32,000 nt of DNA. It comes from an uncultured Alphaproteobacteria bacterium. Lineage in GTDB: Bacteria; Pseudomonadota; Alphaproteobacteria; Rhizobiales; Methyloligellaceae. Position numbers and translations under genes: made by a program. The notes under the pieces were generated by a model. It was not told where the DNA came from. It searched no databases and saw only the letters and a list, made by a program, of their open reading frames with translations. Of the stretch, positions 5,508-19,795 are shown one piece after another. Every line of letters starts with the position of its first letter. The stretch's first letter is position 1. Where the stretch lies: positions 774,065 through 806,064 of the forward strand of contig CAVULQ010000005.1 in assembly GCA_963742355.1 (NCBI GenBank). Direction: 5' to 3'.

Positions 5508-6795
5508 CCTTCTCCGCGGCTGGTGGTCTTCTAACGCGGTCGAAGTACCGAGCGTTCAGTTCTGGTGGGAAATAATGCTTCCTTTTCACCCAAACAAAGC
5601 CCTCTGCCTTAGATATCACCGCAACGTCGATCGGTCCGCCGACCGTTTCCATTCCCCGAGAAACTCGTCGCTTAATGGAGGTGAGTTCTACCAATGCCTC
5701 TGCCATCTTTGCGAGCTCCGGCTTCGGCATAAACTCTACCATATCTTCAATTTCCTTGCGTGACTGCTCTCTTATCGTCTTAAACGCTTTATCGTTCAAA
5801 CTAGCGAGAAATGAGGCCTCCGCAGTCTTGGCGCTTTTCTTTAAGGCATCTAATTTTGCTTTACTTCTTACTTTGACTTTATCGAAGATTTCATCCGATA
5901 TTTTTGACACGCCCTCCCGACAAAAATCCTTCACCCCCTTCTGTATTTCGTCGTCGAGGCCGTAAAGAAATCTGTCCACCATTTCTTTTTGAGCGAACGG
6001 AAGTACTGCCGCCTTCGCTCCTTCTCGATCAATATCGTATTTTCCAGTCACCCTGTATTTTACTGCGCTAATGAGTAAGCCATCTATTTCATTGGATATA
6101 AGCTTTGGGAAACGTTCCTTTGCTCCAAAACCAGCAACGACAATGCCAGTGCGAGAACTAGAAAAATAATCCTTAGTGATAACAAGCTCGCAAACTTTGA
6201 GCAATCTTCCGTCATCAAAGCTAGAAAATCTCGGATCGATCAGCCCTTCAAGGAACTCTCTATCTTCTTTCCTCAATATAATTTTCGCGGCATCAATAAA
6301 ATCTGCCTTCTTACGTTTTGATAGACTGGTTATAAACGGGTCAACTATGTGAGAAAAAACAATAGCCGCGATTTCGTCGACAGATTTTCCTGGAAACTCA
6401 TCATTGAACAGCGCCCCCATAAACTGGTCCTCATGCGCATCAGTTATATATTTCAGAACTGGGGTAACGTCCTTCAGTGAGCGCTCTAATACTTTTTCAG
6501 GGCTTTCCTGCCCTATTTCATTCAAATATTTTAGAAAAGAGCGAGCCGCCTGCTCAACGGTATCAAAGTTGTTATGGATCTCTCTGAAAGCTTTTATCAG
6601 TGAAGGTAGTGGCATTTCCATGAATGAAAGGCCATTATACACCATTATTCCAATGGGTTGAGTGAGAGAAAGCTCGAACAATTTGTCGGCTGTGTCGAAT
6701 ATCTTTTCCTGCTTCTGGCCCGCAGATATCGTGACCGCGTTGTCGGCAGCAAGGGCCACCGCAGTCTTATTCAAGATGGCTATCTCAGCCGTCAT
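5488..6795 (-). CDS. Orphan large proteasome-beta/HslV-like (Ntn hydrolase fold) protein with large helical insertions
   Basis: The track ORF is 440 aa from a TTG at 6810. I prefer the ATG at 6795, which gives MTAEIAILNKTAVALAADNAVT. Codon usage is visibly AT-rich, unlike all neighbours. Thr directly follows Met, Asp sits at +17, and Lys at +30 and +37 are followed by IF/LF. There is a central GIVVAGFG strand. The C-terminal GGPIDVAVISKAEGFVWV resembles the SGGxIxVxxIxKDG strands of proteasome subunits. Confidence 0.75.
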   Translation of the reverse strand: MTAEIAILNKTAVALAADNAVTISAGQKQEKIFDTADKLFELSLTQPIGIMVYNGLSFMEMPLPSLIKAFREIHNNFDTVEQAARSFLKYLNEIGQESPEKVLERSLKDVTPVLKYITDAHEDQFMGALFNDEFPGKSVDEIAAIVFSHIVDPFITSLSKRKKADFIDAAKIILRKEDREFLEGLIDPRFSSFDDGRLLKVCELVITKDYFSSSRTGIVVAGFGAKERFPKLISNEIDGLLISAVKYRVTGKYDIDREGAKAAVLPFAQKEMVDRFLYGLDDEIQKGVKDFCREGVSKISDEIFDKVKVRSKAKLDALKKSAKTAEASFLASLNDKAFKTIREQSRKEIEDMVEFMPKPELAKMAEALVELTSIKRRVSRGMETVGGPIDVAVISKAEGFVWVKRKHYFPPELNARYFDRVRRPPAAEKDDGPKQ

Positions 6796-6995
6796 TGATT
6801 TGACCAGCAAGTGAAAGCGACGCTAGTGGCAATCCCAGGCTCGCAGCTAGTGCCTCGGTTGGCGCAACTGCCCCCTTGTGCCCGAGTCGTGCCGAACCCC
6901 CAACAGGATTAGTTGTACCTTCTTTGATTTCCCTCGTTGCGACCAAGGGGAACAGCGCCCAAAGGTATGTGAAAAATAGCCTAGGAAAAAAGTCC

Positions 6996-7129: not shown

Positions 7130-7714
7130 ATGGAGCAGGACGACCCTCAGCCCGAGGGCGAAGCGGATGCGCATGCGGCGCATCGCGACGGCGTCGACTG
7201 GGAGGAGATCAAGCACGCCGTCATCGACGGCGACTGGTCGCTGCAGCGGATCGCGGAAGCGCACGGCGTCGGCGAAACCACGATCAGAACCCGGATGCAG
7301 AAAGAGCGCTGGGTCCGCCTGGTCGGCACCAAGCCGTTGCCCTCGGGGCGGCGCGCGGGAGCACTGGGCGTGCCCAAAGAAAAGCGAGCGAAGCCCAAAC
7401 CGTTTCGCCGGCGGCAGATGGTGCAGCGGCTGTTCCAGGTGCTGGACGCCAAGTTGACGGAGATCGAGAAGCGCATGGCAGCAGGACAAAGCGGAGAGGC
7501 GACGGCGAGCGCGGCCGACGCCGAGCGCGACGCGCGCAGCCTCGCGGCGCTTGCGCGGCTTTACGCCAAGCTCGTCGAGCTTGACGAGGCGGCGAAGCAA
7601 GGAGGACAGGGCAGCACGCAAGAGAGCGCCAAGGAGACGAGCGAAGATGCGGACAGACTCCGCCAGGATCTTGCGCTCCGCCTTAAGCGCGTCGATCGAC
7701 CAGGGGACGCTTAG
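7130..7714 (+). CDS. GTA g1-like protein (HTH, putative small terminase or DNA-recognition subunit)
   Basis: 194-aa ORF immediately upstream of and overlapping TerL. It has an HTH-like segment (WSLQRIAEAHGVGETTIRTRMQKERW) and a charged coiled C-terminus. The call rests mainly on position. Confidence 0.6.
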   Translation: MEQDDPQPEGEADAHAAHRDGVDWEEIKHAVIDGDWSLQRIAEAHGVGETTIRTRMQKERWVRLVGTKPLPSGRRAGALGVPKEKRAKPKPFRRRQMVQRLFQVLDAKLTEIEKRMAAGQSGEATASAADAERDARSLAALARLYAKLVELDEAAKQGGQGSTQESAKETSEDADRLRQDLALRLKRVDRPGDA

Positions 7715-8996
7715 CCGATTCCTTGCAAGCCTTTCGCCTGGCGAGCTCAGCTTTCTTCACTACGATTTCGCGCTGTGGGCGCGCGACGACCAGTTGCCGC
7801 CGGAAGCGGCGCTTGGGGGAGGGGCGTGGACCATTTGGCTCATGCTCGGGGGCCGCGGCGCGGGCAAAACGCGCGCGGGCGCCGAGTGGGTGCGGAGCAT
7901 CGCGACGGCTTCTCGCGACGATCACCGCGGCGCGGCGCGGATCGCGCTCGTGGGAGAGACGCTCGCCGATGCGCGGAGCGTGATGGTCGAGGGCGTGTCG
8001 GGTCTGCTCGCCGTGCACGCGCCGGACGCGCGGCCGCTCTACGAGCCGTCGAAGCGCATGGTGAGCTGGGCGAACGGCGCGGTGGCGCAGCTCTTCTCGG
8101 CGGAGGACCCCGATTCTCTGCGCGGCCCGCAATTCTCCGCCGCCTGGTGCGACGAGCTCGGCAAATGGAAGAAGCCCGACGAGACCTGGGCCATGCTGCA
8201 ATTCTGCTTGAGGTTGGGGGAGCGCCCTCGCCAGGTGGTGACGACCACGCCGCGGCCGACGAAGCTGATCAAATCTCTGATCGCCGATCCGCTCGTGGCG
8301 GTGACGCGCGTCTCGACCGCGGCGAACGCCGCCAATCTCGCGCCTTCCTTCTTGGAGAGCGTGGTCGGGCGCTATCGCGGCACGCGGCTCGGGCGGCAAG
8401 AGCTCGACGCCGAGCTGCTGGAAGACCGCGCTGACGCGCTGTGGCCGCGCGCTTTGATCGAGGCTGCTCGCGTGAGCGCCGCGCCGGAGCTGACGCGCAT
8501 CGTCGTTGCGGTCGATCCGCCGGCCTCGTCGGGACCGCATGCCGATGCCTGCGGCATCGTCGTGGCGGGGCTTGGGGAGGATGCACGCGCCTATGTGCTT
8601 GGCGATGCGACGGTCGAGCATGCGCGGCCGCTCGACTGGGCGCGCGCGGTGATCCGCGCCTATCGGCGCTACGAGGCCGACCGCATCGTGGTCGAGATCA
8701 ATCAAGGGGGCGACCTCGTCGAGACGGTGCTGCGTCAGGTCGATGCAAGCGTGCCGGTGCGCGCGGTGCGTGCTTCGCGCGGCAAGTGGCTGCGCGCCGA
8801 GCCGGTCGCGGCGCTCTACGAGCAGGGCCGTGTCGCCCATGTCGGCGCGCTGCCAGAGCTCGAGGACGAGATGAGCGATTTCGGGCCCGACGGCTTGTCG
8901 GGCGGGCGCAGTCCCGACCGCGTCGACGCGCTCGTTTGGGCGCTGACCGAGCTTCTGTTGCGCGAGCGGCCAGAGCCCCGCGTGCGGTTCGTATGA
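7647..8996 (+). CDS. Terminase large subunit (GTA g2 / TerL)
   Basis: In frame with track ORF 7551..8996. ATG at 7647 follows AAGGAG. It carries LHYDFALWARDDQLPP, the Walker A GGRGAGKTRAGAEW, and a C-terminal nuclease region, as in RcGTA-type terminases. Confidence 0.9.
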   Translation: MRTDSARILRSALSASIDQGTLSRFLASLSPGELSFLHYDFALWARDDQLPPEAALGGGAWTIWLMLGGRGAGKTRAGAEWVRSIATASRDDHRGAARIALVGETLADARSVMVEGVSGLLAVHAPDARPLYEPSKRMVSWANGAVAQLFSAEDPDSLRGPQFSAAWCDELGKWKKPDETWAMLQFCLRLGERPRQVVTTTPRPTKLIKSLIADPLVAVTRVSTAANAANLAPSFLESVVGRYRGTRLGRQELDAELLEDRADALWPRALIEAARVSAAPELTRIVVAVDPPASSGPHADACGIVVAGLGEDARAYVLGDATVEHARPLDWARAVIRAYRRYEADRIVVEINQGGDLVETVLRQVDASVPVRAVRASRGKWLRAEPVAALYEQGRVAHVGALPELEDEMSDFGPDGLSGGRSPDRVDALVWALTELLLRERPEPRVRFV

Positions 8997-9015
8997 CCGT
9001 CGACAAAGGTGAATC

Positions 9016-10245
9016 ATGCCAATGACTTTGAGCGAGCGGCTCGTGCGATTCCTCGGGTTCGAAGGGAAGGCGAGCAAGACCGCCAAGCTCATCGCCTGGA
9101 CGACGGGCGGCCAGCCGGTGTGGACGCCGCGCGACCTCGCCGCACTCGCCCGCGAGGGCTTCACCAAGAACGCGATCGTCTATCGCGCCGTGCGCATGAT
9201 CGCCGAGGCCGCGGCATCCGTGCCGCTGTTCCTGTTCGATGGCGAGCGCGAAATCGACACCCACCCGCTGCTTGCGCTGCTCGCGCGGCCGAACCCGATG
9301 CAATGCGGGCCCGATCTGCTCGAGGCCTGGTACGGGCATCTCATGGTCGCGGGCAATTCCTATCTCGAGGCAGTATCGGTGGCAGGCGTTGTGCGCGAGC
9401 TGCATGTGCTTCGCCCCGACCGCATGAAGGTGGTGCCGGGGCCTGACGGCTGGCCCGAGGCTTACGACTATACGGTCGGAGGACAGACGGTGCGCTTCGA
9501 GCAGGATGCCGGGGAGGGCGTGCGCCCAATCCTGCATATGGGCCTGTTCCACCCGCTCAACGACCATTACGGCTTGAGCCCGCTCGAGCCGGCGGCGACC
9601 GGCATCGACCTGCACAATGCGTCAGGCGCATGGAACAAGGCGCTGCTCGACAATTCCGCCTGTCCCTCCGGCGCCCTCGTCTACACCGCCAAGGACGGAC
9701 AGCTCACGCCGGAACAATTCGACCGGCTCAAGGCCGAGCTCGAGGAGAGCTTCCAGGGGGCGAAGAACGCAGGCCGGCCGCTCCTGCTCGAAGGCGGCCT
9801 CGACTGGAAGGCGATGGCCTTCTCGCCGAAGGACATGGACTTCATCGCGGCGCGGAACGTTGCCGCGCGCGAGGTTGCGCTCGCTTTGGGCGTGCCGCCG
9901 ATGCTGCTCGGCATTCCCGGCGACAATACTTATTCCAATTACGCCGAGGCCAACCGCTCGTTCTGGCGCCAGACGGTGCTGCCAGTGGTGAAGCGCACCG
10001 CCAAGGCGCTGTCGGGATGGCTCGCGCCGTCCTTCGTCGGTTCAGAGCCGAGCGCAGTGCCGGAGCAGCCCGCGCTCGAGCTTCGTCCCGATCTCGACGC
10101 GATCGAGGCGCTGAGCACCGAGCGCGAGGCCTTGTGGGAGCGCGTGCGCCGCAGCGATTTCCTCACCGTCAACGAGAAGCGCGCCGCGGTCGGCTATGGC
10201 GCCATCGACGGCGGCGACCAGCTCGGTTCGGCTCCTCAAGGCTAA
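9016..10245 (+). CDS. HK97-family portal protein (GTA g3)
   Basis: 409 aa. Supporting segments are NAIVYRAVRMIAEAAASVP, AGNSYLE and NRSFWRQTVLP, plus the position between terminase and protease. Confidence 0.9.
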   Translation: MPMTLSERLVRFLGFEGKASKTAKLIAWTTGGQPVWTPRDLAALAREGFTKNAIVYRAVRMIAEAAASVPLFLFDGEREIDTHPLLALLARPNPMQCGPDLLEAWYGHLMVAGNSYLEAVSVAGVVRELHVLRPDRMKVVPGPDGWPEAYDYTVGGQTVRFEQDAGEGVRPILHMGLFHPLNDHYGLSPLEPAATGIDLHNASGAWNKALLDNSACPSGALVYTAKDGQLTPEQFDRLKAELEESFQGAKNAGRPLLLEGGLDWKAMAFSPKDMDFIAARNVAAREVALALGVPPMLLGIPGDNTYSNYAEANRSFWRQTVLPVVKRTAKALSGWLAPSFVGSEPSAVPEQPALELRPDLDAIEALSTEREALWERVRRSDFLTVNEKRAAVGYGAIDGGDQLGSAPQG

Positions 10246-10264
10246 TTTGCGAAAGACAGAACAC

Positions 10265-10861
10265 ATGCTGCAACGCTTCGGCGACACCTTGCCAGAGCGC
10301 GAGGTGAAGTTCGCGCCCTGCGACCTCAAATCGGTCGAGGCCGACGGCACCTTCACCGGTTATGCCAGCCTGTTCGGCGAGGTCGATCTCGGCCAGGACC
10401 TGGTCATGCCGGGCGCCTTCCGCGAGAGCCTTCGGCTCCGGGGTGCAAGAGGCGTGAAGCTCCTGTTCCAGCACGACCCCAACGAGCCGATCGGGGTGTG
10501 GCTCGAGCTTGCCGAGGACAGTCGTGGACTGTTCGCGCGAGGTCGGCTCATGCCGGAGGTGACGCGGGCACGTGAGGTGTTGTCGCTGATGCGGGCTGGA
10601 GCGCTTGACGGGCTCTCGATCGGCTTCCGCACGGTGAAGGGCCGCACCGACCCCGCCACCGGTGTGCGCCGTCTCGATCAGATCGATCTCTGGGAGATCT
10701 CGGTCGTGACCTTCCCGATGCTGCCGGAGGCGCGGGTGAGCGCGGTAAAGCGGCGGCAGGCACGCTTCGTGGCGGGATCGCGTCATGTGGCAGGGCAGGG
10801 GTCAGATCGCCTGCGACTGCTGCGCAGCATACGCCGCGCCGCGCGCCTGATGCGCAGCTAG
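10265..10861 (+). CDS. HK97-family prohead protease (GTA g4)
   Basis: ATG at 10265 within track ORF 10196..10861. Typical S78 prohead protease segments are GTFTGYASLFGEVDLGQDLVMPGAF, KLLFQHD, GLSIGF and LWEISVVTFP. Confidence 0.9.
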   Translation: MLQRFGDTLPEREVKFAPCDLKSVEADGTFTGYASLFGEVDLGQDLVMPGAFRESLRLRGARGVKLLFQHDPNEPIGVWLELAEDSRGLFARGRLMPEVTRAREVLSLMRAGALDGLSIGFRTVKGRTDPATGVRRLDQIDLWEISVVTFPMLPEARVSAVKRRQARFVAGSRHVAGQGSDRLRLLRSIRRAARLMRS

Positions 10862-10888
10862 CGAATTTCAGTCGGAGCAGCGGCCGTG

Positions 10889-11131
10889 ATGCCACAAGGC
10901 GTGAGCTGGCAGCTCAGCGCTTCGCTTCGACGAGTAAGCTGGCTCCTGCATGCCGAACTTGTCGAGGCGAGGCTGCGCGATCTCGAACGCGCCGTCAAAG
11001 CCGGCTTTGATCCCAATCAGCCTCGTGTGGCGGCCGGCAACCCCGACGGTGGCCAATGGACAGGCACGGGCGGTAGGGGCACAAGCGGTGGGCTGACTGA
11101 GGTCGCGCAAAACGACCCGCCGACCGCCTGA
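10889..11131 (+). CDS. Hypothetical 80-aa protein with a DPNQPR...GGQWT linker-like motif
   Basis: Track ORF 10886..11131 (GTG, then ATG at 10889). It has a short helical N-terminus, then FDPNQPRVAAGNPDGGQWTGTGGRGTSGG. A truncated diverged copy of its 5' part recurs at about 11820-11893. Confidence 0.4.
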   Translation: MPQGVSWQLSASLRRVSWLLHAELVEARLRDLERAVKAGFDPNQPRVAAGNPDGGQWTGTGGRGTSGGLTEVAQNDPPTA

Positions 11132-11235
11132 GGGACATTCAGCAGGAGAGGCCGCACGACGTCACGTGGTAAGAGTTGGGATGAGCGAACAAGAGTAGGC
11201 CTGGACGCGCTTATTGAAATGCGGGTTCTGAAGCC

Positions 11236-11607
11236 ATGACAGACGTCGGTCTGGCGAAGCTAACGATCGAGGAGTTGATCGAGCGCTTTGCAACGCTGGG
11301 CTTAGACCAGCACGAAGCGATCCTTGATGACGACAATGAACGGTTCGCTCGATTGTTTTGGCAGATGGAAGCAGTTGAGGACGAACTAAAGTCGCGTCAA
11401 GGAGATCAGCGCCGCGCGTTGACACGCCTGTACGACCACCGCAATGCGCAGGTCCGATTGTGTGCGGCGAAAGCGACCTTGGCCGTGGCACCCGAAGAGG
11501 CACGGAGGCTCATCGAGAAGATCGCGAAGTCACATGAGTTTCCCCAAGCGGGCGACGCAGGCATGACACTGCGGGCGCTCGACGAAGGTATCTTCAAACC
11601 GACCTAG
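11236..11607 (+). CDS. DUF2019-like helical-repeat protein (possible orphan immunity protein)
   Basis: 123 aa. TIEELIERFATLGLDQHEAIL...RFARLFWQMEAVEDELKSR...LYDHRNAQVRLCAAKATLAVAPEEAR...FPQAGDAGMTLRALDEGIFKP matches my recollection of the DUF2019 family pattern. Confidence 0.6.
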   Translation: MTDVGLAKLTIEELIERFATLGLDQHEAILDDDNERFARLFWQMEAVEDELKSRQGDQRRALTRLYDHRNAQVRLCAAKATLAVAPEEARRLIEKIAKSHEFPQAGDAGMTLRALDEGIFKPT

Positions 11608-11616
11608 ATCAAGTGC

Positions 11617-11893
11617 TTCGATCGTCACCTTCCCCCATGCTGCCCGAGGCCGCGGGTGAGCGCCGTGAAGCGGCGGCATGCACGCTTCGTGGCGGGATCG
11701 CGTCATGCCGCCGGGGAGGGGAGGGACACTTCGCGCCTTGTGCGGAGCATTCGCCGCGCCACGCAGCTGCTGCGCGGATAGCGAAATTCATTCAGAGCTC
11801 TGGTCGTGGTCTTGCCCGACGTGAGCTGGCTCATGCATGCGCGTGTCGTGGAAGCGAAGCTCAGCGATCTCCGCTGCGCGGTCAAAGCTGCCT
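11617..11893 (+). pseudogene. Diverged, frameshifted duplicate of the prohead-protease 3' end plus the start of the downstream small ORF
   Basis: It aligns by eye with 10700-11004. VSAVKRRHARFVAGSRHAAGEGRDTSRLVRSIRRATQLLRG* matches the protease C-terminus VSAVKRRQARFVAGSRHVAGQGSDRLRLLRSIRRAARLMRS*. Two extra nt upstream break the frame. DVSWLMHARVVEAKLSDLRCAVKAA* follows, matching VSWLLHAELVEARLRDLERAVKAG in copy 1. Confidence 0.75.
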
Positions 11894-11972
11894 AACCCGG
11901 ATGTCGTATTTTAAGTCTTGTTAACCTTCGGGTGAGCGAGTGAAAGATATCGCACCTATTGCAGAGGCCTGT

Positions 11973-11992
11973 TATTGACTTATATGTCAATA
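11973..11992. promoter_or_regulatory. Candidate operator palindrome over the start codon of the cassette's first gene
   Basis: TATTGAC-TTATAT-GTCAATA: perfect 7-bp inverted arms with a 6-nt spacer. The ATG at 11984 lies inside it. Confidence 0.4.
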
Positions 11993-12487
11993 GAGGATGA
12001 AATCAAGGCTAGGGTGGTCGAAGGCCGTCTCTGCCCGATCCAGCCAAAGTTGCCGTCTGACCCGATTCTTCGGCCAATGTATGTGACGCCGGAACTGAAC
12101 GCACTCGTAAACGGCCCGTGGGCCGACGCAAAGCAGGAGGCGCGCTTTAGCGCACTGAGAGCCGACCTGGACTTCTTCGTAGCAGGCGGCCTTGTTAACA
12201 AGGGCTATATGAAGCCGCTGAGAAAGCGTGCAGACGAAGTGTGGGAAATCAGGAGCCGCGCGCCGTCGCCCAGCATTCGCCTCTTCGGCCGGTTCGCTAT
12301 GCCCAATGTGTTCATTGGGACAAATTGGGAATATCGATCATTTCTAGAGCTATTTGATCGCTGGAGAAGGAATAAACGGCAGGCGCAGGCCATATGGCGT
12401 CAGCTGTTCACTAACTACCCACCATATAGTGGTCAAAACACTCAAGATTACCTTACTATGAACTGGGAGGGCAACTACGATGAGTAG
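11984..12487 (+). CDS. Cassette gene A: RelE/ParE-superfamily (Gp49/HigB-type) toxin-like protein with an N-terminal extension
   Basis: The track ORF starts at a TTG at 11975, and an in-frame ATG lies at 11984. The gene is AT-rich. EVWEIRSRAPSPSIRLFGRFAMPNVFIGTNWEYRS resembles the xWExR...xRxxxxF core of Gp49/HigB-like toxins. At about 167 aa it is longer than typical toxins. Confidence 0.6.
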   Translation: MSIEDEIKARVVEGRLCPIQPKLPSDPILRPMYVTPELNALVNGPWADAKQEARFSALRADLDFFVAGGLVNKGYMKPLRKRADEVWEIRSRAPSPSIRLFGRFAMPNVFIGTNWEYRSFLELFDRWRRNKRQAQAIWRQLFTNYPPYSGQNTQDYLTMNWEGNYDE

Positions 12488-12893
12488 CAATATTGGTGGG
12501 CTCTCTCCAGCCGATCTTTCTTACTTCCGAGCTCGCCAGAAGAACCGTGTCTACGAAACGGTCATTAAGGCGTTTAGATCGGCCAACATAAGCAAGGCCG
12601 AAATTGCTAGACGCTTGAACCGAAAGCCGGAACAGATCACCAGGTGGCTATCCGGTCCAGGTAACTGGACCTTGGACACAGTAAGCGACCTTTTGCTTTC
12701 CTGCGGGAAGGAATTGGCCTTTACCTCACTCGAGATTGATCGCCCCCTTGAGACAAATTACATCCATCCTTTGGCAGAAGCCACAAGCTTTCATCAGCTG
12801 CAGTGGCAGGTTTCGAGAGCTTCAGAGAGACCAGAAAGGCCTACAAAAACAGAAACAACTGAACCACAGATGCTAGAGATTGTTGATGGGTAA
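12480..12893 (+). CDS. Cassette gene B: XRE-family HTH protein (antitoxin-like) with a long acidic/polar C-terminal tail
   Basis: Its ATG overlaps the stop of gene A (ATGAGTAG). ISKAEIARRLNRKPEQITRWLSGPGNWTLDTVSDLL is a classic HTH_XRE pattern. About 60 further residues follow, likely disordered. Confidence 0.75.
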   Translation: MSSNIGGLSPADLSYFRARQKNRVYETVIKAFRSANISKAEIARRLNRKPEQITRWLSGPGNWTLDTVSDLLLSCGKELAFTSLEIDRPLETNYIHPLAEATSFHQLQWQVSRASERPERPTKTETTEPQMLEIVDG

Positions 12894-13293
12894 GCCTGTC
12901 ATTGAGTATACGCTAGTATGCGATGATACCCGTCGCGAAGACAACGGAAAACTCATCCTTATCGGTGTGTATGGTGCCAATATACTCGTTTCATCTTTCC
13001 CAGCCGCGCTCACACTATCTCTCGTTAGCTTCATACGAAGCGACAGCACATTTGAGGCCGCTAATGCGGTGCGGGCTGTTCTAGACGGCGAAACTCTGAC
13101 TGAGGGCGGGGGCGTCTTTAGAATTCAGCCTGGCAGAGGGATTTCCGTGATTCCTACCCTTCCCCTAACCGTCCCCCACGCGGGAGAGGTAATCTTCGAA
13201 CAGAAGATCGGTGAGGATGATTGGCAAACGCTTGTGAGGGTGCCCGTCGGGCAGAGGGCTACTTCTGCCAGCGTGTTACCGGTGCTTTCTTAG
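12886..13293 (+). CDS. Cassette gene C: unknown beta-rich protein
   Basis: ATG at 12886 overlaps the end of gene B by 8 nt. The protein begins MGKPVIEYTLVCDDTRREDNGKLILIGVYGANILVSSFP. I cannot place it in a family with confidence. It is AT-rich like A and B. Confidence 0.6.
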   Translation: MGKPVIEYTLVCDDTRREDNGKLILIGVYGANILVSSFPAALTLSLVSFIRSDSTFEAANAVRAVLDGETLTEGGGVFRIQPGRGISVIPTLPLTVPHAGEVIFEQKIGEDDWQTLVRVPVGQRATSASVLPVLS

Positions 13294-13434
13294 CTATCCG
13301 CGGCCCGTTTGACAGAGAGATTTCCCCCGTGAATAATTCCGCCCTTCTTACGACCTCGCCACTTGCGAAATCGAGCATGTGTTCTGATTGAGGTTGCGGG
13401 CGCAGACAGCACACACTGCAATTCCGATTTCGTC

Positions 13435-13469
13435 ATGCCCGTGGGTTCGCCCGCGGGCATTCGTGTTTT
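13435..13469 (+). terminator. Terminator-like hairpin upstream of the capsid gene
   Basis: An 11-bp stem, ATGCCCGTGGG pairing with CCCGCGGGCAT (one G-U pair), with a TTCG loop, then TCGTGTTTT. The left arm GTCATGCCCG also begins the repeat at 19081. Confidence 0.5.
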
Positions 13470-13562
13470 GAGACCAGCCCCGATCAAGACGCGGATGGCG
13501 CTTTCACGCGCCATGACGGCCAGCTGAGTGGGGCGACGACCGCCCCAAAGAAGAGGAACGAC

Positions 13563-14861
13563 ATGAGCGAATCTGCAGAGACTGAGATGATCGAGACCAA
13601 GGCCGCCAGCGGCCTCGCGAGCGATGCCGGCACGAGCACCGCGGCGACCGGCGACGACGTGGCCATCGCCTTCGACGACTTCATGCGCGCCTTCGAATCG
13701 TTCAAGGCCGAGAACGAGCAGCGCATCCAGCAGCTCGAGAAGCGGCTGCCGGTGGATGTGCTCACCACCGAGAAGCTCGACCGCATCAACCGCGCCATCG
13801 ACGAGCACAAATCGGTGGTCGACGAGCTCGTGCTGAAATCGGGGCGGCCGAAGCTTGGGCAGGCAAGCGTCTATCGCAGCGGCGCCGCTCTCCAGCACAA
13901 GGCCGCTTTCGAAACGTACGTCCGGCACGGCGAGGCGAACGGCCTGCATCTCCTGGAAGAGAAGGCGCTGTCGGTCGGCTCAGGTCCCGACGGCGGCTAT
14001 CTCGTGCCGGCCGAGACCGAGGCTGCGGTGATCAGAGGCGTTAAGGACATCTCGCCGATCCGCGCCATCGCCGGCAATCGCACGGTGAGTGCCTCCGTGT
14101 ACAAGAAACCTTTCGCCATCAGCGGACCGTCGACCGGATGGGTGGCCGAGACGGCGACGCGTCCAGAGACCAACTCGCCGACGCTCGCCGAGCTTTCCTT
14201 CCCGACCATGGAGCTCTATGCCATGCCGTCAGCGACGCAGGCTCTGCTCGACGACTCGGCGGTCAATATCGACGAGTGGCTCGCCGAGGAGATCCAGGTC
14301 GCCTTCGCCCAGCAGGAGGGCACCGCCTTCGTCTCGGGCGACGGCACCAACAAGCCGAAGGGCTTCCTCGCTTACACCAAGGTGGCCAACGGCTCCTGGT
14401 CGTGGGGCAATATCGGCTACGTGGCGACCGGCACCGACGGCGGCTTCGATGCCACGAACCCGTCGGACGACCTGATCGACTTCATCTATACGCTGAAGTC
14501 CGAGTATCGGGCGAACGCGCATTGGGCGATGAACCGCGCCACGCAGGCGACGATCCGCAAGTTCAAGGACGCCGACGGCAATTATCTGTGGGCCCCCCCG
14601 GAGCGTGCCGACCTCGCGCCCACGCTGATGAACTATCCGATCGCCGAGTCCGAGGACATGCCCGACGTCTCCTCGAACAGCTACTCGGTCGCCTTCGGCG
14701 ATTTCCAGCGCGGCTATCTCGTGGTCGATCGCGCCGGCATTCGCGTGCTGCGCGATCCTTATTCCGCCAAGCCTTACGTCTTGTTCTACACGACCAAGCG
14801 CGTGGGCGGCGGCGTGCAGGATTTCGACGCGATCAAGCTTATGAAGTTCGGCACGTCGTAG
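13563..14861 (+). CDS. HK97-family major capsid protein (GTA g5)
   Basis: 432 aa. It has an N-terminal coiled delta-like region, then typical HK97 MCP segments (GGYLVP, ELSFPTMELYAMPSATQALLDDS, SGDGTNKPKGF, YTTKRVGGGV). Confidence 0.95.
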   Translation: MSESAETEMIETKAASGLASDAGTSTAATGDDVAIAFDDFMRAFESFKAENEQRIQQLEKRLPVDVLTTEKLDRINRAIDEHKSVVDELVLKSGRPKLGQASVYRSGAALQHKAAFETYVRHGEANGLHLLEEKALSVGSGPDGGYLVPAETEAAVIRGVKDISPIRAIAGNRTVSASVYKKPFAISGPSTGWVAETATRPETNSPTLAELSFPTMELYAMPSATQALLDDSAVNIDEWLAEEIQVAFAQQEGTAFVSGDGTNKPKGFLAYTKVANGSWSWGNIGYVATGTDGGFDATNPSDDLIDFIYTLKSEYRANAHWAMNRATQATIRKFKDADGNYLWAPPERADLAPTLMNYPIAESEDMPDVSSNSYSVAFGDFQRGYLVVDRAGIRVLRDPYSAKPYVLFYTTKRVGGGVQDFDAIKLMKFGTS

Positions 14862-14880
14862 CAGAACGCACGTCGCGTCC

Positions 14881-14990
14881 CCCTCTCCCCAGTGGGGAGA
14901 GGGCTGGGGTGAGGGGGGCTCGGATGTCTGAAAACCCCTCACCCGCGCCGATGCAAAGCGTCGGCACGACCTCTCCCCAATGGGGAGAGG
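14881..14990. repeat. Composite REP-like element with three hairpins between the capsid gene and the antisense gene
   Basis: The three hairpins are CCCTCTCCCC-AGT-GGGGAGAGGG (14881-14903), GGGTGAGGGG...CCCCTCACCC, and CCTCTCCCC-AAT-GGGGAGAGG (14970-14990). Confidence 0.8.
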
Positions 14991-15103
14991 TGAAGAAAAG
15001 CCTGGCCGGGCCGGCGGGCGTGACGCGCCCCTCCCACGCGCACGCCCGCCACTTTCTTTGCCTGAAGGCGTGGCCGATGCTCGGGTCCCAGGTCGAGCAG
15101 AGC

Positions 15104-15430
15104 CTATTGCTGGTTCTGATTCTTCTTGTTGATGCCCATCGTTCCGATTGGATGCTTGTTGATCTTACCGCCGGAACTGCCGGAACCGCTGGAACTCTCG
15201 GCCTTCGCCTCCGTGCAAACGCAAGTGTTGTTGTCGTTGTTGCAACTGCCGCCGGTTGGCGCGCAATGATGCTCGAACATCTCATTGCAGTCTTTGTCCC
15301 CGCTACAATTGCAGTGGCCGCCGGCGCAGTGAATTTCGGCGTGGCTCGGTGCGCTGACGAAGAGCACTAGAACGAATGCAAGGGGGAACGCTGCGGCAAC
15401 GCAAAACGATACCCGTTTGGACTTGGTCAT
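15104..15430 (-). CDS. Secreted Cys/His-rich mini-protein (108 aa), antisense to the GTA operon
   Basis: Internal ATG of track ORF 15104..15688, preceded by GAAGGA. The signal peptide is MTKSKRVSFCVAAAFPLAFVLVLFVSAPSHA. The mature part is EIHCAGGHCNCSGDKDCNEMFEHHCAPTGGSCNNDNNTCVCTE (8 Cys, 4 His), then a Ser/Gly linker and an Asn/Gln/Lys tail. The gene is AT-rich. Confidence 0.6.
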   Translation of the reverse strand: MTKSKRVSFCVAAAFPLAFVLVLFVSAPSHAEIHCAGGHCNCSGDKDCNEMFEHHCAPTGGSCNNDNNTCVCTEAKAESSSGSGSSGGKINKHPIGTMGINKKNQNQQ

Positions 15431-15690
15431 TTCCTTCGCCCTTTGGTTGAAATCCCTGAGATCCACTAAGTAGCGCCGGACGATAGCAGAAGGCGGGGAG
15501 TTGCGGTGTGGATCAATATCGCCGCGATTGAAGTCTTGCTCGCCGAGATTCCGGGCTGGACCGTTTGGTGAATCGCAGGGGTTCTCCAGTCCCTTCTTGA
15601 AGGCGGGGCGCCTGCCGCAGATCGAGCCGGGATCGGCCGCTACGTCTCCGGCCATTAACCATTGCAACGATTCCGTAGAGGACGACACAG

Positions 15691-16266
15691 ATGACCGTTG
15701 TGTTGATGACGGCGCCCGCCGTCGAGCCCATTTCGCTCGCCGAAGCCAAGGCGCATCTCAGACTCGACGCAAGCGATGAGGACGCGCTGCTCACCGCCCT
15801 CATCACGGCGGCGCGGATGTTCGTCGAGCGGACCCTCGGGGTCGCGCTCATCACCCAGAGCTGGTCCTACTTTTTGGATTTCTGGCCGAGCGCGGGCTGC
15901 ATCACGCTGCCCATTCTGCCGGTCCAATCGGTGAGTGCAGTGAAGGTCCACGACGGTGCCGGTGGCTCCGTCACGCTCGACGCAGCGAGCTACGCCGTCG
16001 ATGCTCTGTCGGAGCCGGCGCGGCTTGTGCTGAAGGGCGCCGTTCCTTCGACGCAAGCGCGCGAGCTCAATGCGTTCGAGGTGGCGTTCGCCGCGGGCTA
16101 CGGCGACGAGGCAGATAATGTGCCGGGACCGATCCGCCACGCACTGAAACTCCTCGTCGCCCATTGGTTCGAACGGCGCGAGCCGGTCGCGCTCGGTCTC
16201 GTCGCGCAGGACGTGCCGACGACGATCGCGGCGCTTCTGCTTCCCTATCGCCGGTTACGGCTATGA
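15691..16266 (+). CDS. Head-tail connector (gp6-like, GTA g6)
   Basis: 191 aa. EPISLAEAKAHLRLDASDEDALLTALITAARMFVE is the typical gp6-like N-terminus. It ends in an ATGA overlap with the next gene. Confidence 0.85.
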   Translation: MTVVLMTAPAVEPISLAEAKAHLRLDASDEDALLTALITAARMFVERTLGVALITQSWSYFLDFWPSAGCITLPILPVQSVSAVKVHDGAGGSVTLDAASYAVDALSEPARLVLKGAVPSTQARELNAFEVAFAAGYGDEADNVPGPIRHALKLLVAHWFERREPVALGLVAQDVPTTIAALLLPYRRLRL

Positions 16267-16592
16267 CCGAGTTCCTGCCGAGCGAGCTCCGCCATCGTCT
16301 TATGCTCGAACAGCTCGAGCGGGTGGGCGATGACGGCGGCGGCTTCACCGAGAGTTGGGTCGAGGTGGCGACGCTGTGGTGCGACCTGCGCCCGCTTGCG
16401 GGCTCCGAGACGGTCGAAGCGGATCGCACCGCCGGCACCGTCAGCCACGAGATCGCGCTGCGCTATTTGCCCGGCGTCCTGCCTGCGATGCGCTTCCGCG
16501 AAGATGCGCGCGTATTTCACATCGTGAGCGTCATCAATGTCGATGAGCGCAATCGCTGGCTCAAATGTCTATGCGAGGAGCGCGACCTGTGA
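16263..16592 (+). CDS. Head-closure / head-tail adaptor protein (GTA g7)
   Basis: ATG at 16263 within track ORF 16164..16592. LRHRLMLEQ...GGGFTESWVEVATLWCDLRPLAGSE...SHEIALRY...RFREDARVFHIVSVINVDERNRWL is typical of the SPP1 gp16 / TIGR01563 family. Confidence 0.85.
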   Translation: MTEFLPSELRHRLMLEQLERVGDDGGGFTESWVEVATLWCDLRPLAGSETVEADRTAGTVSHEIALRYLPGVLPAMRFREDARVFHIVSVINVDERNRWLKCLCEERDL

Positions 16593-16939
16593 CGGCGGTC
16601 GAGATCACGGGGATCGAGGCGTTACGCCGGCGGTTCGAGGCCGCGAGCGCGACGGAAGCCTTCCAGAGCGCGTTGCGGGAAGAGGCCGAGGCAATTGCCG
16701 CCGAGGCCCGCCGCGAAGCGCCGGCTGCGTTCGCGCAAACCATCGCGGTCGAGGATGTGAGCCAAGGAGAGACGCTCGCGTTCGCCGTCGGTACGACCGA
16801 CCCGGCCGGCAGGGCGGCCGAGTTCGGCACGCTGATGCGGCCGGCCACGCCTTGGCTCTGGCCGATTGTTAAGGCCCGTTTACCGGCAATTAAGGACCGG
16901 CTCAGAAAACTGGCTCTTGCGGCTTCAAAGAGTCCCTGA
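16565..16939 (+). CDS. HK97 gp10-like tail-completion family protein
   Basis: Track ORF. Alternative in-frame starts are ATG 16571 and GTG 16589, the latter a GTGA overlap with the g7 stop. The C-terminal EFGTLMRPATPWLWP resembles the GTxxxPAxPFLxP motif of the gp10 family. Confidence 0.65.
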   Translation: MSMRGARPVTAVEITGIEALRRRFEAASATEAFQSALREEAEAIAAEARREAPAAFAQTIAVEDVSQGETLAFAVGTTDPAGRAAEFGTLMRPATPWLWPIVKARLPAIKDRLRKLALAASKSP

Positions 16940-17040
16940 GTCGGCGTGTGATCGCGAACTGGTGATGGGGGGCGGGGGGTTTTCAGCGTGCCGCACGCAC
17001 CCCATATGTTGGTTAACGCTTCTTACGTGGAGACCTGGCA

Positions 17041-17466
17041 ATGGCGGAAGTAGCAAGTTGGTCGCTCCAGCGCAGTGTCTATCAGGCGCTCGCCGGCTCC
17101 CCCGATCTGACGACGTTGCTCGGCGGGGCGCGGATCTATGACGACGCGCCGCAAGGCGCGGCCTTTCCCTTCATCACTCTCGGTCAGAGCGTGGTCCGCG
17201 ATTGGAGCAGGGGCACCGAGGACGGCGCCGAGCATGATCTTACGCTGCATGTCTGGTCGCGCGCCGGCGGCAAGAAGCAGGTGCACGAGATCATCGAGGC
17301 GATCAGGGCCGTGCTGCACGATCAGCCGCTCGTGCTGTCCGATCACTATCTGATCAACCTGCGCCACGAATTCTCCGAGGCACGGCTCGATCCTGACGGC
17401 GATACGTTTCACGGCATCGTGCGCTATCGCGCGGTGACCGAGCCCGAGCACGCGGTCGCGGCTTAG
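17041..17466 (+). CDS. DUF3168 tail terminator-like protein (GTA g8)
   Basis: 141 aa. VYQALAGSPDLTTLLGGARIYDDAPQGAAFPFITLG...LTLHVWSR is the typical DUF3168 pattern. Confidence 0.85.
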   Translation: MAEVASWSLQRSVYQALAGSPDLTTLLGGARIYDDAPQGAAFPFITLGQSVVRDWSRGTEDGAEHDLTLHVWSRAGGKKQVHEIIEAIRAVLHDQPLVLSDHYLINLRHEFSEARLDPDGDTFHGIVRYRAVTEPEHAVAA

Positions 17467-17527
17467 TCGCAGTCTCTTGCTTCATTCGTTCTAGCATGCT
17501 TCCTCTCGACCGAGTTCGAGGGGAGGG

Positions 17528-17998
17528 ATGCAGGGCGTGACCGTTTGGCGCAAAATAAAGGCTCTCGTCGATCACGTTCTGGGTGACGGCGAGCGCGCGG
17601 GCAATCTTCGCGAGGACGAGCTGCGGCTTGCCGCTGCAGCGCTTCTCATTCACGCCTCGATGATCGACGGCCATGTCGATCCCGAAGAAACCAAGAAGCT
17701 CAAGGCCCTGCTGCAATCGCGCTTTGCCATCGACGACGATGAGCTGCGCAAGACGTTGAAAGAGGCGGAAGCCAGGGAGCACGACTCGGTCGACCTCTAC
17801 AGTTTCACCAGCGTGCTCTGCCGGGGTCTCGACCAAGACGGTCGCCAGCGCATCGTCGAGATGCTGTGGGAGATCGTTCTGGCGGACGGTGTGCTGCATG
17901 AGTTCGAGTCGAACCTGGTGTGGCGCGCCTCCGAATTGCTCGGCGTCTCGACCCGTGACCGTGTGCGACTGAGGAAGCTCGTCGAGAGCCGGACGTAG
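17528..17998 (+). CDS. TerB-domain protein (tellurite-resistance TerB / DjlA-N-like) inserted in the tail module
   Basis: 156 aa with GGGGAGGG upstream. Two TerB-type repeats are present: AAALLIHASMIDGHVDPEE and IVEMLWEIVLADGVLHEFE. Confidence 0.8.
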   Translation: MQGVTVWRKIKALVDHVLGDGERAGNLREDELRLAAAALLIHASMIDGHVDPEETKKLKALLQSRFAIDDDELRKTLKEAEAREHDSVDLYSFTSVLCRGLDQDGRQRIVEMLWEIVLADGVLHEFESNLVWRASELLGVSTRDRVRLRKLVESRT

Positions 17999-18022
17999 CA
18001 GCGGGACAAGATCAGTGGATGA

Positions 18023-18051
18023 GGGCGGCCTCGAGCCGCCCTTTTTGTTTT
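18023..18051 (+). terminator. Strong intrinsic terminator after the TerB gene, 28 nt before the major tail gene
   Basis: GGGCGGC-CTCGA-GCCGCCC, followed by TTTTTGTTTT. Confidence 0.8.
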
Positions 18052-18078
18052 CGCGCTTCTCCAACATGAGGATCAGCC

Positions 18079-18495
18079 ATGACGGCGCAGAAGGGTAAGG
18101 ACCTTCTTCTCAAGGTCGATTCGAACGGGGCCGGGAGCTACTCGACGGTGGCGGGCTTGCGCGCCCGAACCGTCGCCTTCAACGCGGCCGCCGTCGACAT
18201 CACCGACCAGGAATCGACGGGACGCTGGCGCGAGCTCTTGGAAGGCGCCGGCATCAAGACGGCGCGCATCACGGGGAGCGGCATCTTCAAGGACGCCGCC
18301 TCCGACGAGACGCTGCGCTCTTATTTCTTCAATGGGACGATCCGCGCCTACCGCGTGATGGTGCCCGATCTCGGCACGGTCGAAGGCCTGTTCCAGATCG
18401 CGAGTCTCGAATATGGCGGCCAGCACGACGGCGAGGTGACGTTCGATTTGAGTCTCGAATCGGCAGGCGAGCTGACCTTCACGCCAGCAGCTTAG
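18079..18495 (+). CDS. Major tail (tube) protein, TP901-1 family (GTA g9)
   Basis: 138 aa. GKDLLLKVD...TVAGLRARTVAFNAAAVDITDQES..WRELL...ITGSGIF is the typical family pattern. Confidence 0.9.
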   Translation: MTAQKGKDLLLKVDSNGAGSYSTVAGLRARTVAFNAAAVDITDQESTGRWRELLEGAGIKTARITGSGIFKDAASDETLRSYFFNGTIRAYRVMVPDLGTVEGLFQIASLEYGGQHDGEVTFDLSLESAGELTFTPAA

Positions 18496-18506
18496 GGGAG
18501 GGGATC

Positions 18507-18863
18507 ATGGTCAATCGGCACAGGGGCGAGATCGAGGCCGTGCTCGACGGCAAGAGCTACCGGCTTTGCCTCACGCTCGGCGCGCTCGCCGAGCTCGAGC
18601 ACGCGTTCGGCGAGGACGACATGCTTGCGGTCGCTGAGCGCTTCGAGGCGGGCCGCATCGCCGCGCGCGATGCGATCAGGATGATCGGAGCTGGCCTGCG
18701 CGGCGCAGGCTACGAGATCGACGACGCGGCGGTCGCTGCCATGCGCGTCGAAGGAGGCGCCGCCGGCTTTGTCGACATCGTTGCCCGGCTACTCGCGGCG
18801 ACCTTCACCGCCGCCGCCCGCGAGGAGATCGGCCCTTTCGCAGGGAGCGCGCTCGCGGATTAG
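18507..18863 (+). CDS. GTA g10 tail assembly chaperone-like protein
   Basis: 118 aa. GEIEAVLDGKSYRLCLTLGALAELE is typical of GTA g10 family proteins, and the gene sits before the tape measure. Confidence 0.85.
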   Translation: MVNRHRGEIEAVLDGKSYRLCLTLGALAELEHAFGEDDMLAVAERFEAGRIAARDAIRMIGAGLRGAGYEIDDAAVAAMRVEGGAAGFVDIVARLLAATFTAAAREEIGPFAGSALAD

Positions 18864-18910
18864 AGGGGCAAGTTCACGCCAAGCCGGAGCCGTTCCCCTG
18901 GGATGAGGCG

Positions 18911-19072
18911 ATGGAGGCGGGACTTGGGGCCTTACGGCTTGCGCCTTGCGTGTTCTGGGCGATGACCCCGCGCGAGCTCGAGGCGGCGCTGCGCGGTGTC
19001 TTTGGCGTGCGCTCGCCGCTCATGTCACGGAGCGATCTCGCAGCGCTCATGGCTCTCTATCCAGATCAATAG
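18911..19072 (+). CDS. GTA g10.1 (rcc01693-like) small protein. The minimal ORF starts at the first ATG and may instead be made as a -1 frameshift extension of g10.
   Basis: Under the track cutoff. My translation is MEAGLGALRLAPCVFWAMTPRELEAALRGVFGVRSPLMSRSDLAALMALYPDQ. The family-like residues PFPWDEA lie upstream of this ATG in the same frame, and I found no ATG, GTG or TTG there. Confidence 0.65.
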   Translation: MEAGLGALRLAPCVFWAMTPRELEAALRGVFGVRSPLMSRSDLAALMALYPDQ

Positions 19073-19083
19073 AAACGCTCGTC

Positions 19084-19175
19084 ATGCCCGCGCAGGCGGG
19101 CATCCAGTAATCACTGACCCTCGCGATAGTGAAGCGTGGTGGTTACTGGATCGCCCGGTCAAGCCGGGCTATGAC
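19084..19175. repeat. Bipartite hairpin repeat (family 2), copy 1
   Basis: Hairpin ATGCCCGC-GCAG-GCGGGCAT, then CCAGTAA...TTACTGG, then hairpin GCCCGG-TCAA-CCGGGC, then TATGAC. Same architecture as 20457-20531. Confidence 0.7.
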
Positions 19176-19188
19176 AAAGGAAAAATCG

Positions 19189-19748: not shown

Positions 19749-19753
19749 GTCCC

Positions 19754-19774
19754 CCTCTCCCCACTGGGGAGAGG
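19754..19774. repeat. REP-like hairpin (family 1)
   Basis: CCTCTCCCC-ACT-GGGGAGAGG followed by TGAAAC, between g11 and g12. Confidence 0.8.
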
Positions 19775-19795
19775 TGAAACAAGGTCTCGATAGCC

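Follow-up and report, generated by a model that had tools for sequence, protein, structure and literature searches.

A predicted toxin-first HigBA-type cassette with an exchangeable third gene in the gene transfer agent cluster of an uncultured alphaproteobacterium

We analyzed a stretch of 32,000 nucleotides (nt) from an uncultured alphaproteobacterium of the family Methyloligellaceae (positions 774,065 to 806,064 of contig CAVULQ010000005.1, assembly GCA_963742355.1; hereafter the window, to which all positions refer) and describe here a cassette of three small genes, A, B and C, that lies in the head gene block of a gene transfer agent (GTA). That A and B form the core of a toxin-antitoxin system is well supported and, in our judgement, probable. 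We hold as an evenly balanced proposal that the cassette as a whole is a horizontally acquired HigBA module of the toxin-first type combined with a modular accessory third protein, its layout being like that of the toxin-antitoxin-chaperone (TAC) systems without making it one of their members. The elements concerned are the following (lengths in amino acids, aa):

11972-11991, unstranded: 20-bp palindrome TATTGACTTATATGTCAATA, which covers the ATG of gene A
11984-12487, + strand: gene A, 167 aa, predicted HigB/Gp49-type toxin with a RelE/ParE fold, from a family without annotation
12480-12893, + strand: gene B, 137 aa, XRE-type helix-turn-helix (HTH) protein, antitoxin candidate
12886-13293 (from its ATG), + strand: gene C, 135 aa, predicted all-beta sandwich of the DUF6941 family, putative accessory third component

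Direct reading of the sequence gives three open reading frames (ORFs) in the order A-B-C, all on the + strand and overlapping by 8 nt at each of the two junctions, ATGAGTAG between A and B and ATGGGTAA between B and C, which bears out the tight coupling reported in a preliminary description of this DNA. The frame of gene A is open from a TTG at 11975 (to 12487), a start that would give 170 aa; the real start is almost certainly the ATG at 11984, since the N-termini of the homologues all read MSI.DEI. The ORF list holds no frame longer than 73 aa on the opposite strand of the cassette, and the Rfam families yielded zero matches across the whole window. GC content is 0.47-0.53 over 12300-13050, whereas the genes for portal, protease and capsid have 0.65-0.69, and at third codon positions it is 0.62 in gene A against 0.80-0.87 in the GTA genes. 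The composition of the cassette is thus foreign to the GC-rich GTA genes that flank it, as had also been noted.

By sequence, the product of gene A belongs to no described family. No match at E<=1 was obtained in Pfam, NCBIfam, PHROGs or PADLOC, the gathering threshold is not reached for Gp49 (PF05973) or for any other of the 13 BECR families, and a search of PDB sequences with the profile of the gene A family found no toxin; PF05973 is matched weakly by 3 of 66 family members (best E 0.004). Each of the 31 close homologues found is unnamed. An exhaustive profile search (E<=1e-3) delineates a family of 1205 representatives of clusters at 50% identity, nearly all of them 160-190 aa long and matched end to end. 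The AlphaFold2 (AF2) model, built on an alignment of 25 homologues (alignment A1), is confident, with a predicted local distance difference test (pLDDT) value of 90 and a predicted template-modelling (TM) score of 0.87, and its strands (E) and helices (H) follow one another as E35-37, H39-46, H52-69, E79-81, E90-93, E101-109, E112-120 and H129-144. The model shows the RelE/ParE fold, composed of N-terminal helices, a four-stranded antiparallel sheet and a long C-terminal helix of the kind that is typical of Gp49-like toxins (PMC9098466). When the PDB was searched with Foldseek, the best match was HigB1 of M. tuberculosis (7awk; E 1.3e-3, TM score 0.61 normalised by the target), followed by HigB of S. 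pneumoniae (6af3/6af4) and then by RelK, YoeB, ParE and HigB2, so that RelE/ParE toxins account for 9 of the first 10 non-redundant matches. The HigB/Gp49-like core attributed to gene A beforehand is therefore confirmed at the level of the predicted fold, its closest structure being a TAC toxin. The extra N-terminal region of about 80 residues attributed to it is on the contrary mostly the normal beta1-alpha1-alpha2 part; what lies outside the RelE/ParE core is about 30 N-terminal residues (a helix, 6-15, and a short strand) and about 25 C-terminal ones.

The catalytic residues of HigB1 include E66, R68, R77 and K95 (PMC9098466), spaced 2/9/18; residues E91, R93, R102 and R121 of gene A are spaced 2/9/19, a match by spacing only. 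Within alignment A1, E91, R93 and R102 are invariant and R121 is conserved in at least 90% of the sequences, whereas in the broader set of 66 members only R102 is invariant, R93 and R121 are conserved in at least 90% and E91 in less than 90%. Judged by its modelled fold and motif gene A is like a HigB/Gp49 toxin, yet by sequence it is in no curated family; its most likely activity would be that of a ribosome-dependent mRNA endonuclease. In two independent lineages frameshifts interrupt gene A but leave B and the DUF6941 gene intact (loci of the comparison carry numbers with the prefix L):

L005 4992-5551, and likewise L006 and L007 (three samples): gene A split by frameshift
L026 3003-3544: gene A split by frameshift

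This is the decay pattern expected of a harmful toxin gene.

Gene B matches HTH_3 below threshold (E 4e-3, together with related matches) and phrog_1373, 'transcriptional regulator' (E 2e-7). The profile of its family (20 members), searched against PDB sequences, retrieves HipB (3e-4), the HTH domain of HicB (8e-4), an XRE-family protein and HigA of S. pneumoniae (9e-3); the last is the partner of the HigB that is a top structural match of gene A. In PADLOC-DB v2, gene B matches only the HTH parts of the candidate systems PDC-M64B and PDC-M64C (E 3e-7), and genes A and C have no match among the defence models. The core of the protein (residues ~13-93, about 85 residues) is followed by a semi-conserved motif R(A/P)PRN[YF]..P.W, which reads ETNYIHPL in the window, and then by a low-complexity tail rich in Ser, Thr and Pro, 44 residues long in the window and 24-134 across the family. 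The earlier identification of an XRE HTH protein with a C-terminal extension thus holds.

Gene B is uncalled in the public contigs of the organism of the window and in the gene table of a plasmid of R. tropici, and its exact sequence is absent from a collection of 15 billion proteins. The positions concerned are:

window, 12480-12893: gene B uncalled
L092, 2595-3008: gene B uncalled
L159, 3467-3925: gene B uncalled

The annotation of gene A, in addition, begins at an internal Met and gives a protein of 136 aa. With B uncalled and A called from an internal Met, the module is invisible to toxin-antitoxin searches that rely on annotation.

The pairing of A with B is conserved. According to a check with hidden Markov models (HMMs), B stands directly after A in 85 of 89 A loci; the contigs of the remaining 4 stop short of where B would lie. 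Starting from homologues of C, three independent long contigs show a gene of ~165 aa, one of ~130 aa and then DUF6941, and by HMM the first two are A and B. Overlaps between A and B are mostly 8-35 nt across loci, and B and the third gene overlap by up to 14 nt or are separated by up to 12 nt, a 4-nt overlap being commonest. From gene order and homology, the A-B pair has the arrangement of a type II toxin-antitoxin system of the toxin-first HigBA kind, that is, adjacent and co-oriented genes, a predicted HTH antitoxin and a conserved pairing. The search for the triad elsewhere suggested by the preliminary description was carried out by comparison of gene neighbourhoods and found it in unrelated genomes, on a plasmid and in phages, for instance:

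Synechococcus phage MinM1, ON981384.1, 22210-23607: full DUF6941 triad with the palindrome, directly after an S24 repressor-like gene
Rhizobium tropici CIAT 899 plasmid pRtrCIAT899b, NC_020061.1, 478106-479422: full DUF6941 triad with the palindrome, between integrases and insertion sequence (IS) elements
Viral contig L151: A-B with DUF3467 as the third gene, next to a tail-tube gene, TnpB and Bro-N

The other neighbourhoods of A-B are varied, with housekeeping genes, transposases and, in L001, the HsdR gene of a type I restriction system.

The 20-bp palindrome that spans the start codon of gene A provides a further link between these loci. It is unique in the window, where 0.01 occurrences are expected by chance. 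Of 65 distinct A loci, 40 carry it as a strict match, and TTGAC-N6-GTCAA variants occur in several others, including the phage and the plasmid. Copies elsewhere include:

L159, 2989-3008: palindrome copy
L160, 3992-4007: palindrome copy

The palindrome is nearly invariant although the A proteins of those loci share only 30-60% identity, and the loci are unrelated in the sequence that precedes it. Third positions of codons 2-3 are fixed within it, and wobble variation is back from codon 4; constraint at synonymous sites therefore concerns the nucleic acid itself. Folded as RNA, it forms a hairpin (-11.5 kcal/mol, z -1.2) no better than shuffled sequence does, so that sequence-specific recognition is the best reading, most simply by the conserved HTH of B. 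The palindrome is thus probably the operator of B, and it might possibly act as a start-codon hairpin in addition. A promoter at this place was considered and rejected, as no consistent -35/-10 arrangement is compatible with translation from the conserved ATG; that ATG lacks a Shine-Dalgarno sequence before it, and no promoter was located with confidence. In the divergent clade (L008, L010, L021 and L032), comparison of the palindrome with the recognition helix of B gave no clear sign of covariation. In viral contig L150, which was discarded, the palindrome occurs by chance and there is no A gene.

Gene C, for which the preliminary description offered no assignment, can be placed in the DUF6941 family. 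The protein itself scores 23.4 bits (E 8e-5) against PF22091, just under the 27-bit cut-off, and PF22091 is carried by 13 of its 16 homologues (E 1e-24 to 1e-9 for the homologues). An invariant N-terminal hairpin, C12-D13-x2-R16-R17-E18-D19-N20-G21-K22...I26-G27-x-Y29-G30 (CD..RREDNGK..IGVYG), is present, and membership is read from this shared motif together with the assignment of the homologues. The AF2 model (pLDDT 94.5) is an all-beta sandwich of nine strands without helices. Its PDB matches are generic immunoglobulin-like sandwiches (the carbohydrate-binding domain of Wzt, PDE6D, RhoGDI, UNC119) with TM scores of about 0.5, and its best viral fold matches are small uncharacterised phage proteins (TM score 0.63-0.70). 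A SecB-like protein was rejected on the strength of this all-beta fold and of the PDB matches listed, none of which is SecB, in agreement with the earlier impression that gene C does not resemble SecB; nor did the gene C profile find SecB among PDB sequences. DUF6941 is not confined to such cassettes, and many members stand alone or in tryptophan operons and not behind a toxin-antitoxin pair. In Planctomycetia and Omnitrophota, homologues lie between trpB and trpA in the translationally coupled order trpF-trpB-DUF6941-trpA:

L041, 2196-5193, and about 30 other Planctomycetia and Omnitrophota loci (L042-L091): DUF6941 in the trp operon, with a 1-nt overlap with the trpA start

These copies keep the CDDVRREDNGK hairpin. 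Given this position between trpB and trpA, gene C is probably a benign binder and not a second toxin. DUF6941 is not mentioned in the literature that was searched, and DUF3467 and DUF2019 appear there only in irrelevant contexts.

The third position of the cassette is not reserved for DUF6941. In 36 evaluable, non-redundant loci anchored on gene A it is occupied as follows:

DUF6941: 17 of 36 loci
C2, a family of ~220 aa without annotation: 13 of 36 loci
DUF3467: 3 of 36 loci
Other or none: 3 of 36 loci (L119, an unrelated ORF of 117 aa; L146 and L148, two-gene loci)

C2, which takes the place of DUF6941 after A-B in roughly one third of the loci, has no Pfam or PADLOC match and is recognised by an N-terminal MKLL, by RYGF near residue 40 and by a C-terminal ERR...PF..N.YFS.APL.T.DH...LE. 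Examples of C2 are:

L001, 5970-6635
L105-L107, L112, L115, L125, L138 and L139
L152, 6000-6650
L154, 6265-7017

DUF3467 was considered as a hidden relative of SecB and dismissed, since a profile search of the PDB gave no signal and hhalign against an approximate sequence of E. coli SecB returned a probability of 0.07. The three types are interspersed on the tree of gene A, where only 39 of 54 nearest neighbours are alike in type. One example of the exchange is L098 (DUF6941) and L001 (C2), whose identity is 69% in A and 82% in the core of B, the similarity stopping right after the RN..P.W motif. The tail of B beyond this point differs with the type of third gene. Loci with DUF6941 have a median tail of 44 aa and those with C2 one of 79 aa (p 5e-6 in a Mann-Whitney test that makes no correction for phylogeny), Thr amounts to 12% in DUF6941 loci vs 4% in C2 loci and Gln to 3% vs 8%, and in the two-gene loci the tail has 15 aa (L148) and 37 aa (L146). 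A strand-like phi-x-phi-x-phi motif at the C-terminal end of B, which looked enriched at first count (12 of 37 tails against a background of 5%), was rejected as specific to DUF6941 (p 0.27; Fisher p 1.0 against C2 tails); the tails of both types end more hydrophobic, and this end is confounded by the ribosome-binding site of the next gene, which overlaps it.

Taken together, these observations lead us to propose the following model. The Gp49/HigB1-like product of gene A would cut mRNA in a ribosome-dependent manner, and gene B would act as antitoxin and autorepressor, a dimer of its HTH binding the 20-bp palindrome over the start codon of A. The region of B just past the HTH, with its RN[YF]..P.W motif, would be the contact site for A, and the long, fast-evolving and low-complexity tail would be the handle for the third protein. 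Gene C may bind or protect this tail and in this way set the stability or the activity of the antitoxin; its loss or titration would switch the module on. The third slot would be exchangeable, DUF6941, the ~220-aa C2 family and DUF3467 alternating behind closely related A-B pairs, and the position in the GTA head module would be that of cargo inserted at a recombination-prone junction, with no part in morphogenesis. An action of the third protein through the tail of B is proposed because the length and composition of the tail differ with the type of third gene, because the tail is as short as 15 aa in L148 and because the breakpoint of homology falls within the tail. This full model, a HigBA-type module whose accessory C acts through the tail of B, we consider about as easy to believe as to doubt. 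A more speculative extension, which we rate as rather doubtful, sees in A-B the constant 'warhead' of a new and widespread class of modular three-part toxin-antitoxin systems, whose disordered antitoxin tail takes swappable partners other than SecB (DUF6941, DUF3467, C2) as stabilisers or sensors; the copy in the window could in addition respond to the assembly of GTA or phage heads.

The setting of the cassette is a head-tail cluster in the order of RcGTA along 7551-26895, recognised from Pfam matches in order and known here from genes alone:

7551-8996: terminase (Terminase_6; Pfam)
9016-10245: portal (Pfam)
10196-10861: S78 protease (Peptidase_S78; Pfam, E 4e-38)
13563-14861: HK97-type capsid (Phage_capsid; Pfam, E 5e-91)
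15691-16266: head-tail connector (Pfam)
16164-16592: head completion (Pfam)
17041-17466: gp17 tail completion (Pfam)
18079-18495: tail tube (Pfam)
19796-20431: DUF2460 (Pfam)
20548-21444: BR0599-type hub (Pfam)
22831-26895: GTA_TIM protein (Pfam)

Several further features lie in or beside this cluster:

10724-11006, + strand: first copy of a duplicated segment, comprising the functional 3' end of the protease gene and the start of ORF 10886-11131
11236-11607, + strand: DUF2019 protein, 123 aa (E 2e-35), between protease and capsid, GC below that of the flanks
11644-11893, + strand: second, diverged copy of the segment (3' end of the protease gene and 5' end of the post-protease ORF), forming the left border of the A-B-C insert
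13309-13337, + strand: strong sigma-70-like match TTGACA-17-AATAAT (11/12), just past the stop of C, a consensus match only
13435-13460, + strand: GC-rich hairpin with a T-run behind it, resembling a terminator, downstream of C and ~100 nt before the capsid gene, from a consensus scan
15104-15688, - strand: Cys-rich ORF, 194 aa, between capsid and connector, no Pfam match, local GC lowered to 0.57-0.61
17528-17998, + strand: TerB-domain protein (E 1e-33), non-structural, between the tail-completion and tail-tube genes
5488-6810, - strand: ORF of 440 aa, just upstream of the terminase region, no Pfam match, GC markedly low (by codon position 0.53/0.35/0.47), probably another foreign insert

The cassette does lie between protease and capsid, as first described, but it does not abut the protease: the DUF2019 gene and a duplicate of the 3' end of the protease gene intervene. 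The two copies of the duplicated segment are 73-87% identical (direct repeat families D1-D3) and run from the last ~45 codons of the protease across a spacer into the following ORF, of which they include the first ~40 codons. The second is a pseudo-fragment, with translated pieces 'SAVKRRHARFVAGSRH...' and 'DVSWLMHARVVEAKLSDLRCAVKAA*'. The first copy is followed by the DUF2019 gene and the second by A-B-C, a pattern which suggests that two cargo cassettes were stacked by recombination via the shared segment; a passive cargo fits this duplicated border better than a morphogenetic role. The GTA position is repeated only in metagenome contigs of the lineage of the window, and none of the ~65 other distinct A loci has a GTA setting. 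The importance ascribed earlier to the location in the GTA head block is thus not borne out, no evidence of a function having been found for a position seen in this lineage only, and a functional role is unlikely. At the 3' side, the hairpin at 13435-13460 is a possible end of the cassette transcript (a weak sign, with 3 such sites found against 1.8 expected), and together with the promoter-like match at 13309-13337 it might influence whether transcription reads through into the capsid gene of the GTA. As a separate observation, the 81-aa post-protease ORF (10886-11131) has a conserved N-terminus, SWL.HA.VVEAKLRDLERAVKAGFDP.QPRV..G..GGQWTG.GG, which elsewhere (L155 562-1665; L156 4001-4915) heads proteins of 90-139 aa with variable C-termini; in loci of this type the variable proteins are followed by small genes (132, 80 and 147 aa), outside any GTA. 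This layout recalls polymorphic-toxin or cassette-exchange loci, and the copy in the window looks cut at its Gly-rich linker.

Several points weigh against the proposed model. Gene A stays below every sequence-family threshold, the Foldseek E-values are modest (1e-3), and its correspondence with the catalytic residues of HigB1 is one of spacing and not a residue-level structural alignment. The palindrome covers the start codon and not a recognisable promoter, none having been found that is convincing. The test on tail length ignores phylogeny and the two-gene loci number only two. Co-inheritance of the distal tail of B with the third gene was looked for and is not detectable, the tails being too divergent even within one type of third gene. 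Moreover, the RREDNGK hairpin of gene C is equally conserved outside toxin-antitoxin contexts, which rules it out as a dedicated site for the variable tail of B; it probably binds something universal. A and B could instead be a plain two-gene HigBA-like pair with a passenger behind it, the families C, C2 and DUF3467 being unrelated in function and linked to the pair by travelling in a compact mobile cassette. The existence of two-gene loci (L146, L148), the replacement of the third gene by unrelated families, the trpB-DUF6941-trpA arrangement outside toxin-antitoxin contexts and the lack of co-inheritance of the distal tails are all in line with such a passenger. We nevertheless find it unlikely, if worth keeping in view, because 33 of the 36 loci hold one of just three families, almost always overlapping B or at most 12 nt from its stop, whereas random cargo should be more diverse and less tightly coupled, and because the length and composition of the B tail track the type of third gene, the tail being short in one of the two two-gene loci (L148).

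The three remaining explanations concern what the module does. It could be a system for abortive infection that senses phage as TAC does, C being a decoy or sensor seated on the tail of B and displaced by a phage structural protein, upon which B would be degraded and A freed; the swappable third genes would then be alternative sensors. TAC works in this manner with the chaperone as sensor (bioRxiv 10.1101/2024.02.24.581848; PMC11980606), the closest structure to A is a TAC toxin, the same A-B pair occurs with swappable third genes, and the module is found in the lysogeny region of a phage, in an island of a plasmid and beside HsdR in L001. The silence of PADLOC-DB v2 on A and C, neighbourhoods made up mostly of housekeeping genes or IS elements and not of defence islands, and a hairpin in C too strongly conserved to square easily with a fast-evolving phage sensor make this quite improbable. 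It is less probable still, and in our eyes very unlikely, that A is a catalytically dead co-repressor of B with a RelE fold, and A-B-C a small transcription-regulatory unit instead of a poison and its antidote. The place of A outside all curated toxin families, the extraordinary conservation of the operator and the example of HigB2 and HigB3 of M. tuberculosis, which have the same fold and are non-toxic (PMC9098466), would agree with it, but the E-x-R...R...R residues are invariant or nearly so in alignment A1, with R93, R102 and R121 conserved in at least 90% of the 66-sequence set, and the independent frameshifts strike A and spare B and C, as is usual in the decay of a harmful gene. Finally, the GTA might have co-opted the cassette, either for translation arrest in producing cells or for sensing of capsid assembly, which would make its position functional. 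The cassette has the orientation of the GTA operon, lies directly upstream of the capsid gene and is kept in this arrangement in several metagenome contigs of the lineage, and there is a precedent for an immune-type system that controls GTA release (PMC13236601). Set against this, some 65 other distinct A loci all lie outside GTAs, the composition is foreign, the insert is bordered on the left by a diverged duplicate of the kind typically seen where cargo was gained by recombination, and unrelated inserts (DUF2019, TerB, the Cys-rich ORF) pepper the same cluster, so that we can hardly credit a co-option.

Should the 'warhead' reading be true, the chaperone-addiction principle of TAC would extend beyond SecB, and two DUF families, DUF6941 and DUF3467, would receive first functions. 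If the model of a HigBA-type module with an accessory third protein is right, these two families would be given their first functional context, and some 1200 clusters (50% identity) would be recognised as a family of HigB-type toxins. An antitoxin tail with a dedicated partner, a combination hitherto linked to SecB-like chaperones, would then be a general plug-in design in which the partners can be exchanged, which bears on how toxin-antitoxin and abortive-infection systems sense their triggers. The near-invariant palindrome over the start codon of the toxin is an unusually clear and directly testable regulatory element, and experiments are feasible as the triad is carried by a cultured host (R. 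tropici CIAT 899, on its plasmid) and by an isolated phage (MinM1). The window itself shows that a head-tail cluster supposedly streamlined and vertically inherited can gather several foreign cargo genes at its junctions.

Three-component loci such as PasABC (of pTF-FC2), PaaR2-PaaA2-ParE2 and omega-epsilon-zeta combine a toxin, of the RelE/ParE superfamily or other, with an antitoxin and a small modulator; the third place is taken in them by a regulator or an enhancer whose fold is helical or DNA-binding, and their order is antitoxin- or regulator-first. To our knowledge none of them has DUF6941, DUF3467 or a swappable third slot. The toxin-first order, the overlapping genes and the HigB fold are shared with HigBA of S. 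pneumoniae (6af3/6af4) and with pairs of Gp49 (PF05973) and HTH_3; unlike the pneumococcal proteins, however, A is ~50 residues longer (N-terminal helix and strand, C-terminal extension) and lies below the Pfam thresholds, and the module of the window possesses a long B tail, a third gene and a putative operator spanning the start codon. Gp49-HTH pairs have been catalogued in a survey of 13 Pfam BECR families (PMC11980606), which would miss gene A since it matches none of them. The closest analogue is TAC, represented by HigB1-HigA1-SecB-like Rv1955-57 of M. tuberculosis and by HigBAC of E. coli (PMC5105189, PMC9098466, bioRxiv 10.1101/2024.02.24.581848). The order of toxin, HTH antitoxin and third gene, the modular architecture, the Gp49/HigB1 fold of the toxin and the extension of the antitoxin past its HTH (ChAD in TAC) are common to both. 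On the other hand, the third protein is here a DUF6941 sandwich, C2 or DUF3467 in place of a SecB-like chaperone, and it is the A-B pair that is constant and the partner that varies, whereas TAC systems keep the SecB-like chaperone and differ in the toxin-antitoxin pair. With no SecB-like chaperone and an inverted modular logic, the cassette is not to be filed as TAC; it would rather represent an undescribed modular variant of three-part toxin-antitoxin systems, with a toxin family that lacks annotation, an operator-like palindrome and a third slot open to three unrelated families.

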